NCBI GenBank assembly: GCA_965214775.1
Contig: OZ243974.1
Location: forward strand, 160,001 to 224,000
Source of the DNA: Nitrosopumilus sp.
GTDB taxonomy: Archaea > Thermoproteota > Nitrososphaeria > Nitrososphaerales > Nitrosopumilaceae
Direction: 5' to 3'
DNA: 64,000 nucleotides
Below are positions 21,237 to 29,562 of this stretch, one piece after another; the stretch's first letter is position 1; the number at the start of each line of letters is the position of its first letter. Under the pieces are notes generated by a model. The model saw only the letters and a list, made by a program, of their open reading frames with translations. It did no database searches and was not told the DNA's origin. Position numbers and translations under genes: made by a program.

Positions 21237-21547
21237 CAGTGATGGTTGGATCTGTCTGTCTATTAATTAGTTCTAGGCGCAAAAGCAGAGTCCATGGTGA
21301 ATACTTTTAAGAAAAAACGGCAAAGCAGATGCAGTGAATGCAACAACTCGAGGAATTTTTCTTGGAATCTCTGCCATTTTACTAGTATCATCAGGCATGC
21401 CAGTCGATGCACAGGCAGTCGAATCGCCAAAAAAACAGATCAAAAGAGGGATTGCTCCTGAAGACATCCAATGTAATGTCTGGCTGGAACTATACTGACG
21501 ATCATTGAAAATTTCGCCTGATTACACGTCTTGTGAAGGTTTATAGA

Positions 21548-22025
21548 CGCTATATGAAATCTTATCAGTATCCTGTGATATACAATTATCGTTGGGCCTG
21601 AGAGTCGATGTGATCTTACCATGTACAAGGGTGTTTTATAGACTGACTCGTAACAGCAGGCGGAAAGCAATATACCGCGTAGACGGTGAATGGGAGATTC
21701 CGCCCGGATCAGGCATTTTGATCAAAAAGGAGGTGATAACATGATCAACTCGGCCACAGCAGTACGAAACGACTCAAGACTTGGTTCTATATATGAAAGG
21801 ATAAGAAAGAGACGAGGATGGCAGAAGGCAAAGATTGCAGTTGCAAGGCATATGCTGGAGATAATCTGGCACATGCTGACCACCGGAGAAGAGTACCGCA
21901 CTCAGAACAAGACTCTCACGCAGAGAAAGTATAAGAGGATGCATCGCATAGCAACATTGTCCTGATTCGGAACATCACGCTGGCAAGGGTCCACGGTAGG
22001 ATCTGGTACGATTTCATATGGGAGA
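21548..22025 (+). mobile_element. non-autonomous IS110/IS1111-derived element (internally deleted recombinase)
   Basis: Absent from IS630 copy 2; sub-terminal IRs atatgaaatcttatcag/ctggtacgatttcatat; AGA core at both ends; ORF 21741-21965 is an IS110 C-terminal domain (YERIRKRRGWQKAKIAVARHMLEIIWHML). Confidence 0.88.
21590..21720 (+). ncRNA. candidate bridge/seek RNA of the IS110-derived element
   Basis: Outer stem gcctga/tcaggc encloses two stem-internal-loop-stem arms; loop sequences TTTATAGA and ATGGGAGA match the target and donor junction respectively. Confidence 0.75.
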
Positions 22026-22047
22026 TCTCCGCCATGGCCCTTCTGAC

Positions 22048-23124
22048 ATGAACAAGACGAAAATCCTCACGGATGCCATGCGTGTCGAAAAGGATAACAG
22101 GGTTTATACCAGAATCCTAGCGGTGCGCTCCGTACTGCTTGGCAACACCACTGCACAGACCGCAGAGATTGCCGACGTGACACAGCGTACAGTACAGATG
22201 TGGGTTGAGAGGTTTGAGCTTGACGGCGTTGACGGTCTCCGTGACTCCCCCAACAGGGGGAAAAAGCCAAAGGTCCCAGTCGGCAGGATAAAAAAGATCG
22301 CCACGAGGGTGCGCAGGATGGAAAAGCTCACCCCGAAGAAGATGCGCAACTGGGTGCGCCGCAAACTGCATGTCACATACAGCGTTGGAAGCATCAGAAG
22401 AATCCTGCGCACGATGGGATTCTCGCTAAAGACGTCAACTACCAAGCTGGCAAATGCTGCCGACGCAAAGGAGGTAAGACGGTGGCAAAGGGAGGCAAAA
22501 GACACGATTAGGCTTGCAAAAAGGCGCGGATTCAGGATAACCGTACAGGACGAGTCGATATTCGTCAGTACGGGAAGGGACGGCAGAAAGTTCGTACAAC
22601 TTCAGGTCCTATTTAAACCGCCTAGGAATCTAGGAAGTATTTGCTTGCCAGTATAAATAGGACCTGAAGTTGTACGAAAGTTCTGGTCGCCAGTGGGGGA
22701 CAGGATCGAGGTGCAACGATCCGGCAGAAGGGAGCGCGTCGTGGTATACGGAACGGTTGCAGACGACGGAACCAGGCTGATGCACACATACGACAAGTTC
22801 AACAGCATAAACTTTGTGCGTTATCTCAAGCAGGCGCACAGAAAGTGGGGAAAGGTACTGATGGTGATGGACAACGCATCACAGCATAAGACCGGAAGGG
22901 TTCGTAGGTACCTGAAGAAAAATCCCGACGTTGTCCTGCTGTACCTGCCGGTAGCTAGGCCGGAGCTGAGTGGCATAGAGCCAATCTGGAAGGATGCCAA
23001 GTACAGGCTGGTCACATCTGCCTTTTACGATACGGCAGATCACCTCAAAAGAGCCGTCTCAGAATACTTTAGGACGTGTTCCATTAAAGTTGACATCTAC
23101 AAATATCTTGAGCGCCGCGTGTAA
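22048..23124 (+). pseudogene. IS630 transposase interrupted by MITE H
   Basis: MNKTKILTDA...QDES; 90-bp in-frame insertion with a stop at 22654; continues MDNA...RPELS DDE motifs. Confidence 0.9.
22594..22675. mobile_element. MITE family H (82 bp)
   Basis: Perfect 22-bp TIR gtacaacttcaggtcctattta; 8-bp target duplication GAAAGTTC; absent from IS630 copy 2. Confidence 0.92.
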
Positions 23125-24033
23125 AGAAGGCGAAATTTTCAATGATCGTCAGTATAGTCATCAGGGATAACGGAAATCCGGCCTGTGTTACAGCAAGTAC
23201 TGCTGAAAAGATGAAGAGTTTGGGAATTGCCTTTGGCCTGGCTCCTGTTTCAAAATCCGAAAATCAGATCCAATCAATTCCAGCATCAGGTGAATCCACA
23301 GTCAGTTTCTACATTACAGATCATGATTTGAATTTGGCCCATGGCGGAGTGGAAATCATTGAGACGGACGGACTTTTGGAATTTACGGTTAATGGGAAAG
23401 CAATTCCCGGACCAGAAACAATGATTGAGACGGGTCCTAATACAGGTCAGTTTTATGTAAAGCTGGAACTGCCTGACACAGTAAATGGAAGACAAATCAG
23501 CCAGGATGACATCGTTCTGGTCAGATATCTGGATCAATCAGATGATGCAGGAGAGCAGAGAGTTCTAGTCAAATCTGTAAAACTTTCAAAAACGTTTGCC
23601 AAAATCCAGACGGCAGGAGGAGGCGGCTCAAGAATAGGACATGAGTTTACCGTGCGAATATACGAGTCGGATGCAAATATGGATTCCAAGGAAGTGGACA
23701 GAATTTCTCTGAGTTTGTTAGAGTTCAGAGGGGAGGGCGGAATCAGAACAACATTGGCAAATCCAAAATTTGACGCAAACTCTGCATTCCTTTTAGAAAC
23801 AGAACCCAACTCAAGCACATTTGAAGTGAAGGTAAAAATTCCAAGGGAGGTGGATGGAAAAACAATCCACATCGGAGACAAATACGAAATCAGATATATC
23901 GACAGATCCACTACGTCAGATACGGATGAGAAAGTGATCTTCAGTGGCAGGATTGGATGATGGTTTTAATGGATCAGGTTTGTCAATATTCAGTATAACC
24001 TAAAGATTTTATTCAAAACAACGAACTAGTTGT

Positions 24034-26697: not shown

Positions 26698-27082
26698 CCC
26701 TCAGTTGTCCTGTCCCTTGCCTTTATGACATTTTCTAACGTGGTTATTCTGTCTGTAATCGATGCAATTGCGGTCTCAGGCTCACGATATGTTGGCCGGC
26801 GACCTTTTATGATGCCGATGTTGTGCGGGGGTTGTATTTGGATCAGTGGGATTAGGACATATCAAACAGATTGTCAAGGTACAGATGGCCACACACTTGG
26901 CACGTGCCACCAATGTTATTAGTTACAAATCAAAGTTACATCAGAATCATCATGGGAATTCCAGTCAACGGAACACCGGAGTTTGTAAAACTTTTCCAGT
27001 CTCTAAATAAAACAGAACGACTATTCAGGGAACTATACTGACGATCATTGAAAATTTCGCCTGATTACACGTCTTGTGAAGG

Positions 27083-27088
27083 TTTATA
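27083..27088 (+). promoter_or_regulatory. putative TATA box of IS630 transposase
   Basis: TTTATA 25-30 nt upstream of ATG 27113, the usual spacing for a leaderless archaeal transcript. Confidence 0.55.
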
Positions 27089-27112
27089 GATCTCCGCCAT
27101 GGCCCTTCTGAC

Positions 27113-28099
27113 ATGAACAAGACGAAAATCCTCACGGACGCCATGCATGTAGAAAAGGATAACAGGGTTTATACCAGAATCCTGGCGGTGCGCTCCGTAC
27201 TGCTTGGCAACACCACTGCACAGACCGCAGAGATTGCCGACGTGACACAGCGTACCGTACAGATGTGGGTTGAGAGGTTTGAGCTTGACGGCGTTGACGG
27301 TCTCCGTGACTCCCCCAACAGGGGCAAAAAGCCAAAGGTTCCAATCAACAGGATAAAAAAGATCGCCATGAGGCTGCGCAGGATGGAAAAGCTCACCCCA
27401 AAGAAGATGCGCAACTGGGTGCGCCGCAAACTGCATGTAACATACAGCGTTGGAAGCATCAGAAGAATCCTGCGCACGATGGGATTCTCGCTAAAGACGT
27501 CAACTACCAAGCTGGCAGATGCTGCCGACGCAAAGGAGGTAAGACGATGGCAAAGGGAGGCAAAAGACACGATTAGGCTTGCAAAAAGGCGCGGATTCAG
27601 GATAACCGTACAGGACGAGTCGATATTCGTCAGTACGGGAAGGGACGGCAAAAAGTTCTGGTCGCCAGTGGGGGACAGAATCGAGGTGCAACGATCCGGC
27701 AGAAGGGAGCGCGTCGTGGTATACGGAACGGTTGCAGACGACGGAACCAGGCTGATGCGTACATACGACAAGTTCAACAGCATAAACTTTGTGCGTTATC
27801 TCAAGCAGGCGCGCAAAAAGTGGGGAAAGGTTCTGATTGTGATGGACAACGCAGCACAGCATAGGACCGGAAGGGTCCGCATGTACCTGGAGAAAAATCC
27901 CGACGTTATCCTGCTGTACCTGCCGGTAGCCAGGCCGGAGCTGAGCGCCATAGAGCCAATCTGGAAGGATGCCAAGTACATACTGGTCACATCTGCCTTT
28001 TACGATTCGGCAGATCACCTCAAAAGGGATGTCTCGGAATACTTTAGGACGTGTTCCATCAAGGTTGACATCTACAAATATCTTGAGCGCCGCGTGTAA
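27113..28099 (+). CDS. IS630 family transposase
   Basis: HTH N-terminus; QDES, MDNA, RPELSAIE DDE triad. Confidence 0.95.
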   Translation: MNKTKILTDAMHVEKDNRVYTRILAVRSVLLGNTTAQTAEIADVTQRTVQMWVERFELDGVDGLRDSPNRGKKPKVPINRIKKIAMRLRRMEKLTPKKMRNWVRRKLHVTYSVGSIRRILRTMGFSLKTSTTKLADAADAKEVRRWQREAKDTIRLAKRRGFRITVQDESIFVSTGRDGKKFWSPVGDRIEVQRSGRRERVVVYGTVADDGTRLMRTYDKFNSINFVRYLKQARKKWGKVLIVMDNAAQHRTGRVRMYLEKNPDVILLYLPVARPELSAIEPIWKDAKYILVTSAFYDSADHLKRDVSEYFRTCSIKVDIYKYLERRV

Positions 28100-28364
28100 T
28101 CAGGCGAAATTTTCAATGATCGTCAGTATAGATGCAATCTTAGAGGCACTTGCAGAAAACCCCCTACTAGGGGAACGGATAAGATTTGAATTGGTTCCAA
28201 AATCACTTAAGAAGCGGTACCCGGATCTTGACAACCTGTTGCGGGTTGAGGTAAACAAGAGATGGCGTTTGTTGTATACTTTAGTCGGATGGCCACAAAA
28301 CAAAACGGTGTATGTCTTGATGGCCATGCCTCACAAAGAATATGATAGACTGTTTGGCTATTGA

Positions 28365-29361: not shown

Positions 29362-29562
29362 TCATCGTCGATCCCATGTACACGGTACATAATCTTAGTA
29401 CGCAGGCATGATTTTGTGACACAGGTACTTTTTGTGCTCAGCAATCAAGGCGACTTTCAGGCCCAACAGCAATGCCAGATCACAGGATACAGATAAGATT
29501 TCACACAGCGTCTTAAGCTTGGCAGTCATTTTACGGGAAACGATTTTGATAATCCCTTCATG

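Follow-up and report, generated by a model that had tools for sequence, protein, structure and literature searches.

We identified a 478-bp insert in the leader of an IS630-type transposon of the archaeon Nitrosopumilus sp. which is very probably a non-autonomous deletion derivative of an IS110-family insertion sequence (IS), with IS1111-type ends, a retained bridge RNA and a lost recombinase, and which would be moved by the enzyme of intact sister copies using its own RNA as the guide. The insert lies in a 64,000-nucleotide stretch of DNA (the window), positions 160001-224000 of the single 2.83-Mb contig OZ243974.1 (assembly GCA_965214775.1); coordinates of five digits are those of the window and refer to its forward strand unless marked (-). 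The anatomy of the element, its empty site, its parents and the covariation of its guides with targets and donor ends can be read directly from the DNA. On comparison of copies, we take the 5' end of the element to encode a true bridge/seek RNA, because one of its arms tracks both flanks of the element and the other tracks the element's own ends.

The insert and its intact parents

An initial annotation of this DNA had described a 478-bp insertion relative to an empty allele, and the exact difference was reproduced here. The sequence of the filled site is ...GAAGGTTTATAGA|CGCTATATG...CATATGGGAGA|TCTCCGCC, that of the empty site at 27081-27095 is GGTTTATAGATCTCC, and filled minus empty leaves exactly 478 bp (21548-22025). 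The boundary of the insert can slide by up to 3 nt, with AGA repeated at both junctions; under the AG-core convention adopted below the element runs from 21547 to 22024, which is the same interval but for the sliding A. The sub-terminal inverted repeats at 21552-21568 and 22003-22019 were likewise recovered, with identity at 15 of 17 positions and the first 10 perfect, and on re-inspection all stem, loop and repeat coordinates given earlier were correct. The left repeat is preceded by the extension (AG)ACGCT, and the right one is followed by GGG (22020-22022) and the core AG (22023-22024).

BLAST of the 478 bp against the genome returned about 50 pieces. Among them are three intact full-length copies of 1333-1336 bp that share both ends with the short element (hereafter the mini), confirming the existence of full-length IS110 relatives. 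The intact copies encode a DEDD recombinase of 359 aa (376 aa if read from an upstream ATG) with the domains PF01548 (7e-28) and PF02371 (5e-23), and with scores of 97.8 and 81.6 bits these parents belong to the IS110 family. Relative to the 1336-bp parent, the mini is an in-frame internal deletion that removed about 842 bp between two near-identical 9-mers and kept parent positions 1-205 and 1048-1336. What is left of the recombinase is an open reading frame (ORF) of 74 aa at 21741-21965, in which the first three codons are fused in frame to recombinase residues ~288-359. It is 93% identical to residues 285-359 of the full-length protein, has no Pfam match and is without the catalytic domain, in agreement with the earlier description of a recombinase deleted down to its C-terminus and of an element that is not autonomous. 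The mini is therefore a derivative of the IS110 family and not an autonomous member of it.

One more full-length copy is frameshifted, and several further copies are broken by other insertions, such as the copy at 1252186, which is interrupted by an IS66-family element. The minis comprise two deletion types, both of which retain the left 200 nt and the right end: type 1 (478/484 bp; parent ~206-1047 deleted) is present as four copies and one partial tandem, and type 2 (487 bp; parent ~384-1223 deleted) as three copies. With seven members of 478-487 bp from two deletion lineages, plus one partial copy, the group qualifies as MITEs (miniature inverted-repeat transposable elements), differing from classical MITEs in that there is no target duplication and a guide RNA is carried. 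The archaeal nature of the host, as originally proposed, is supported by its small-subunit ribosomal RNA, which scores 1459 bits with the archaeal model versus 1097 bits with the bacterial one, and the named homologues of the recombinase are from ammonia-oxidising archaea.

Two further members of the family were seen in passing. A diverged left-end remnant (82% identity over 60 nt) lies in the window at 29451-29510 (-), next to AAGCTTAAG, a variant of one of the target sites discussed below (that of the DDE_Tnp_1 IS). The full-length copy at G000:C1:2749475-2751227 lies within another copy's recombinase gene, at a GTAGA|TATC site that resembles the nested copy's own left target.

The bridge RNA and its distribution

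The bridge/seek RNA gene occupies 21591-21716 (about 125 nt) and consists of an outer stem (21596-21601/21709-21714), a target-binding arm and a donor-binding arm. The target-binding arm (arm 1) has a stem at 21602-21607/21644-21649 and an inner stem at 21617-20/21630-33, with the loop strands GATCT (21612-16) and TTTATAGA (21635-42). In the donor-binding arm (arm 2), the stem is at 21659-65/21698-704 and the loop strand ATGGGAGA at 21690-97. Folding 21590-21720 for minimum energy gives exactly this outer stem and this pair of arms. Across 18 sequences the helices are conserved, 93.2% of 502 cells being paired against 25-44% in slid controls, and five of the 28 pairs change on both sides.

Covariance models recognise the RNA of the window at 151.5 bits (R1) and 135 bits (R2). 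They match such an RNA in 9 of the 151 genomes in a draw of relatives and in 12 of the 151 genomes in a draw from the class, the latter representing 7 of 48 genera; both tallies include this genome, and the second also counts the unpublished genome G241.

Target guides follow the flanking DNA

The right target guide of the mini (21610-21616) lies on the 5' strand of the arm 1 loop, where GATCT is complementary to the top-strand core and right target, AGATC. The left target guide (21635-21641) lies on the 3' strand, where TTTATAG repeats the left target plus core as read on the top strand and would pair with the bottom strand. We compared left guides with left flanks in 39 elements, 22 from this genome and 17 from eight relatives, which form 32 distinct pairs. 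Thirteen fragments had been dropped before this count since their loop or left-end start was not recognisable (eight remnants from this genome without an intact loop, and five matches from relatives in which the pattern failed to recognise the left-end start or the loop end). Over the six positions before the core, the mean identity of guide and flank was 4.38 of 6. Shuffling the guides among elements gave 2.05 +/- 0.22 and in none of 20,000 shuffles was 4.38 reached, a test that is inflated by relatedness, as is that of the right guides, but that still spans 18 distinct guide sequences with plainly different classes. The classes of left guide are TTATAG, AAACAG, CAGTAG, TATGAG, TCACAG, GCAAAAG/GCGAAAG/TCAAAAG, GCAACAG and GATAAG.

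The 5' strand of the arm 1 loop is similarly complementary to the core and the right flank. Among the 19 elements with both ends, 15 show at least three contiguous matches past the core, and the mean identity is 4.19 of 6 compared with 2.39 +/- 0.29 for shuffled guides (0 of 20,000 as high). Perfect right-guide matches of 8-9 nt occur in two other genomes, G002 and G242. The wider class draw supplied 20 further matches; the left-end start was recognised in 16 and 15 were comparable, of which 13 by our own reading fit the left flank at six or more of eight positions, adding the classes TAACAG, TAATAG, TAAGTAG, CCGTAG, TACCAG, CTTGAG and GTAGAG. The covariation of guide and target that had been predicted for a bridge RNA is strong both within this genome and in other genomes, and most copies do sit at targets matching their own loops.

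Some loci depart from the simple pattern in informative ways. The element at G000:C1:2169389-2169914 has a chimeric target loop, with a left guide of the TTATAG class and a right guide near the TTCC class, and its left end is located at a CAGTAG site, which points either to copies having recombined or to guidance in trans. The DNA coding for the left guide was also itself used as a pseudo-target. At G000:C1:2787937-2788694 (L070) positions 93-375 of a second copy come directly after a complete 478-bp mini, whose right end plus AG is joined precisely to the DNA immediately 3' of the left-guide sequence in the second copy; the DNA encoding that guide, identical in sequence to the left half of the target, seems to have acted as the pseudo-target here. 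At G000:C1:1348582-1348669 a left end breaks off exactly behind its left-guide sequence TTCAGTAG, and the next bases are TTCC, which form the right half of the target of full-length copies; this has the appearance of a deletion running from the guide-coding DNA to the right junction. This structure recalls the 'half-match' recombination reported for IS621 in a preprint (10.64898/2026.08.31.748434).

Donor guides and the core

The donor-arm 3' strand AATGGGAG equals the right end plus core and is almost invariant, as is the right end itself; in the mini, the left donor guide (21690-21696) is ATGGGAG, equal to the right end ATGGG followed by the core AG. The right donor guide is the triplet AGC (21666-21668), complementary to left-end positions 3-5 (GCT). 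Across lineages this triplet sits four bases before the inner stem, and it complements left-end positions 3-5 in 10 of the 14 element types that could be determined; two of the remaining types are wobble-compatible and one is mismatched. Guide and left end covary in four states (AGC/GCT, AAC/GTT, ATC/GAT and GGC/GCC). We therefore regard the right donor guide as real, if short (3 nt), and as skipping the core and the first two bases of the left end. The left donor match of the initial annotation is borne out, whereas its view of AGC as a weak match does not hold, since the triplet covaries in four states.

Right ends have the form GATTTCATAT-GGG-AG and left ends the form AG-ACGCT-ATATGAAATC, so that, counting one AG at the left, the extensions outside the inverted repeats are of 7 bp (AGACGCT) and 3 bp (GGG). 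AG is found at both junctions of copies with different targets, and no target is duplicated. The core had earlier been given as AGA. By comparison of junctions it is instead AG, because full-length copies continue with TTCC directly after GGGAG (GGGAG|TTCC) and the diverged sub-family continues with TTTAC after the right end; the window copy owes its extra A to a coincidence of its target.

Target transposons and candidate promoters

The transposase of the transposon that hosts the mini is of the DDE_3 type, in keeping with the proposed insertion into an IS630-type element. The left end of this host (21490-21546) comprises a 39-bp terminal inverted repeat and the leader as far as the left target GGTTTAT and the core AG (21545-21546). 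The rest (22025-23157) contains a transposase ORF cut to 212 aa. The empty target at 27081-27095 belongs to an intact copy at 27033-28131 (1099 bp, with a 328-aa DDE_3 transposase and 39-bp terminal repeats). The insertion site is in the leader, 22 nt upstream of the transposase ATG, and the exact site is present in the genome as seven empty and three occupied copies.

For the 487-bp minis, the sequence that the guides fit is AAGCTTATAG|ATCATGG, which lies in the leader of an IS of about 1.2 kb with a DDE_Tnp_1 transposase; three exact and two diverged copies of this site are empty and three are occupied. The 484-bp mini and two left-end fragments are found at GCAAACAAACAG|ATT, a site upstream of another recombinase of the IS110 family (33% identical), and of more than 25 copies of this AAACAG|ATT site three are occupied. 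Between them, the two mini lineages are aimed at 5' leaders in three IS families that are unrelated. All intact full-length copies, with the loop strands TCAGTAG and GGAAC, carry guides for CAGTAG|TTCC, a site for which no empty copy was found in this genome. Judged from their loops, the minis are programmed differently from the surviving intact parents. The IS630 programming may predate the deletion, because the now-broken recombinase-bearing copy at 1252186, which is also in the IS630 site, has guides that are nearly those of the window mini.

The second IS110-family element, with the 33% identical recombinase, is present in at least eight copies (e.g. G000:C1 634448-635487), and its leader (more than 25 copies) is the target of one class of mini. 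The IS630 copy that hosts the mini also carries a near-perfect hairpin of about 84 bp at about 22594-22676, an insert that breaks up its transposase ORF further. Loose ends of contigs at both of its borders indicate many genomic contexts, and it is probably a palindromic MITE. The sole Rfam match, a microRNA family on this hairpin (22585-22684), was rejected as spurious.

In the empty IS630 copy, TTTATA (21540-21545 in the filled one) is a putative TATA box about 27 nt upstream of the ATG, a spacing that, we infer, would be appropriate for an archaeal TATA box if the message is leaderless. The insertion separates this box from the transposase gene, and it had been suggested that the transposase is uncoupled from its promoter as a result. 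Some 30 nt upstream of the transposase ATG, the right end of the element provides an AT-rich box of its own, and also (CATATGGGAG) an ATG at 22018 in frame with the transposase ATG at 22048, 30 nt downstream, a start that extends the N-terminus of the ORF by 10 codons; the uncoupling therefore remains putative. The captured TTTATA box could drive the RNA of the mini. A TTAT(A/C)-like motif that recurs in all lineages at left-end positions ~15-24, and lies at about 21560-21570 in the window, is a second candidate promoter, about 25 nt before the 5' end of the RNA.

Mobility and alternative explanations

In the mechanism that we propose, the recombinase from one of the three intact sister copies would bind the RNA of the mini. 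The donor arm would hold the joined ends of the excised element, with its 3' strand AAUGGGAG matching the right end plus core and AGC of its 5' strand pairing with left-end positions 3-5. The target arm would pair with both strands of GGTTTAT-AG-ATCTCC in the IS630-type leader, UUUAUAG of its 3' strand with the bottom strand and GAUCU of its 5' strand with the top strand, and strand exchange at the common AG core would insert the element without target duplication. Transcription, the RNA-protein complex, the circular intermediate and mobilisation in trans are the steps that we infer. The same deletion junction is found in three unrelated target contexts, which argues that the mini moved after the deletion, and the 487-bp type is found in two. 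Moreover, genome G242, of another genus, has an element of about 300 bp (L078 1388-1686 (-)) that is little more than a left end, a bridge RNA and a right end. Its guides agree with the DNA on either side at 7 of 8 and 9 of 9 positions, and a search of that genome with the full-length recombinase as query (E <= 1e-10) yielded no homologue. A back-joint from 22024 to 21490, with 3 letters between, was considered as a circle junction and rejected, being the junction of the full-length element with the adjacent IS630. Joints that skip the 478 bp, in contigs from four of five runs of DNA or unknown type from two studies, correspond to empty IS630 copies; the contigs break at repeats.

Several observations weigh against this account and have to be set beside it. 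The fold energy is no better than that of shuffled sequences (z = -0.58 for 21590-21720 and 0.14 for the 198-nt left end), and therefore the case rests on the comparison with other copies and not on the fold or on this copy alone. A single diverged sub-lineage accounts for all five compensatory pairs, and a search of Rfam matched no bridge RNA family. In three rows of the right-guide comparison the register is slid by one base. LE_2169389 fits its left flank at just one of six positions, and the right flanks of the mini at 2787937, of FLx_2634798 and of L083 in G183 do not match the elements' own guides; either guidance in trans or later rearrangement would account for such copies. The near-identical 9-mers that border the deletion could have allowed it to recur. 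Finally, the two IS630-borne minis probably go back to one insertion, later copied with the IS630, because their hosts (that in the window and that at 1124121) differ by 3 nt between themselves but by 14-17 nt from the empty copies. The IS630::mini composite is present at two loci with different flanks, at 21490-23157 and at G000:C1:1121546-1124179, and its two parts probably travelled together, through IS630 transposase provided in trans. At the second locus the mini is split by a 1040-bp element with inverted-repeat ends.

The last two points fit with an inert relic, in which a full-length element was guided into an IS630 once and lost its recombinase in place, and the mini was never mobilised, its later copies arising passively as IS630 transposed with its passenger or as segments were duplicated. 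The shared derived substitutions and differing flanks of the two hosts, the repeats around the deletion and the recombinase-bearing copy at 1252186, with nearly the same guides in the same site, all agree with such a history. We nevertheless think it improbable. The same junction is also present in the DDE_Tnp_1 IS site (2787937) and in the AAACAG|ATT site (808414, where the guides match), the minis are closer to each other than to any extant full-length copy, the second deletion type has two different target contexts of its own, and the ~300-bp element with matching guides belongs to another genus. Somewhat less improbable, though still disfavoured, is that the mini is mobile but was placed by the bridge RNA of a sister copy and merely inherited the match of its own loops. 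Donor-arm guides and ends are identical in minis and full-length copies, which leaves guides and cargo unlinked, so sister RNAs could also move the mini; the elements at 2169389, FLx_2634798 and 2787937 sit where the guides of another copy fit; and a preprint describes IS110 elements with a recombinase only and suggests that bridge RNA may work in trans (10.64898/2026.08.14.744561). Such free use in trans would not lead one to expect that most elements match their own guides, unless all were recent copies by descent. That the matches of loop and flank arise by chance, or that the 5' region is a structured leader without a guiding role, would sit comfortably with the unremarkable fold and the silence of Rfam. 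It is already contradicted by the covariation, with no shuffle reaching the observed left- or right-guide matches and more than 18 guide specificities tracking their flanks in 7 genera, and we give it practically no weight.

Our preferred reading thus remains a mini that is placed by its own RNA with borrowed recombinase. A more speculative extension, which we put forward tentatively and do not expect to be the likelier outcome, is that guide-only minis evolve as 'guide parasites', whose changed loops redirect the parent recombinase into the leaders of competing transposons. If so, the targets would be the leaders of IS630, of the DDE_Tnp_1 IS and of another IS110-family IS, and by landing just downstream of TATA-like boxes the minis would be transcribed from the promoter of the victim and could silence it. 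This would amount to RNA-programmed warfare between transposons in archaea and would provide a natural precedent for a bridge RNA split from its recombinase.

The study of bridge/seek RNA recombinases is a young field, dating from 2024, and work has centred on bacterial elements. In the open-access literature we found no guide-only IS110 derivative with its own programming, although the ISfinder tables of the 2024 papers may include relatives, and no set of guide-only elements aimed at the leaders of other transposons. Natural elements with only a guide and ends, reprogrammed relative to intact parents, indicate that the guide is able to evolve as a parasite separate from the enzyme, and the enzyme likewise. 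With its empty and filled sites, one genome that contains at least five natural reprogrammings also makes a ready data set on which loop positions matter, and the archaeal clade, with its compact RNA of ~125 nt and its 359-aa enzyme, bears on the divergence of the IS1111 and IS110 groups.

Comparison with known systems

RNA guidance of IS110-family recombination is established (PMC11208160, PMC11208158, PMC11187229), and archaeal IS110 recombinases are on record, with 662 counted in one survey (10.1101/2024.06.21.599552). The recombinase itself gives distant matches in a tblastn search of plasmids (22-38% identity). Its matches in the PDB are limited to the C-terminal domain, which resembles those of IS621 (8wt6, E = 4e-12) and ISCro4 (9t56, E = 6e-12). 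Neither kind of match discriminates between the IS1111 and IS110 groups, and the IS1111 likeness rests on the ends and the guide order.

The closest resemblance in these features is to the IS1111-group seekRNA elements ISEc11, ISKpn4 and ISPa11 as portrayed by Siddiquee et al. 2024 (PMC11187229). In both cases there is a DEDD recombinase, long sub-terminal repeats with extensions of 7 bp at the left and 3 bp at the right, no target duplication and a preference for repeated or mobile-DNA targets, and in both the guide complementary to the top strand precedes that for the bottom strand. The repeats of our element (15 of 17, 10 perfect) compare with a minimum of ~11-13 bp for the group and are flanked by AGACGCT and GGG; of its guides, the right one is on the 5' strand and the left one on the 3' strand. 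In the IS1111 group, however, the RNA gene is usually downstream of the recombinase in a long non-coding region, whereas here it is upstream, with ~200 nt of non-coding DNA on that side and only ~60 nt past the stop codon, and the host is archaeal. IS1111 elements with an upstream non-coding region, such as ISMtsp17, are noted as exceptions (PMC11187229). Judged by its layout, the element combines ends and a guide order of the IS1111 type with an RNA gene placed upstream, as in the IS110 type. The combination of features singled out by the initial annotation is present in full, but only the upstream RNA is atypical, the repeats and the right-guide-first order being the published IS1111 pattern.

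IS621 and the IS110 group, as described by Durrant et al. 2024 (PMC11208160) and Hiraizumi et al. 2024 (PMC11208158), likewise encode the RNA in the left end, upstream of the recombinase, with two internal loops for target and donor and with guides that include a 2-nt core. In both systems left guides pair with the bottom strand (7-9 nt) and right guides with the top strand (3-7 nt), the lengths given for IS621 being 8-9 nt and 4-7 nt, respectively (PMC11208160). Our element departs from this group in its layout: the guide order within each loop is reversed, the core is AG and not CT, the sub-terminal repeats are long and the right donor guide is of 3 nt only, skipping the core and two bases. 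No clear analogue of the handshake guides described for IS621 (PMC11208158) was found in this RNA.

Among small derivatives, MITEPpu9 of Pseudomonas putida, with its ssr9 gene, is comparable in being non-autonomous and in having IS110-family ends and a small-RNA gene (PMC12288879). MITEPpu9 forms minicircles and is thought to use the transposase of its parent; its small RNA is described as a non-guide one, whereas the RNA kept here is the guide, programmed differently from that of the intact parents. The recombinase-only IS110 elements of about 800 bp without a 5' UTR (untranslated region), described in a preprint (10.64898/2026.08.14.744561), are also one half of a split system of two parts, with the implication that enzyme and RNA can work in trans. 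The minis present the mirror image: they have kept the RNA and lost the enzyme, where those elements have done the reverse.

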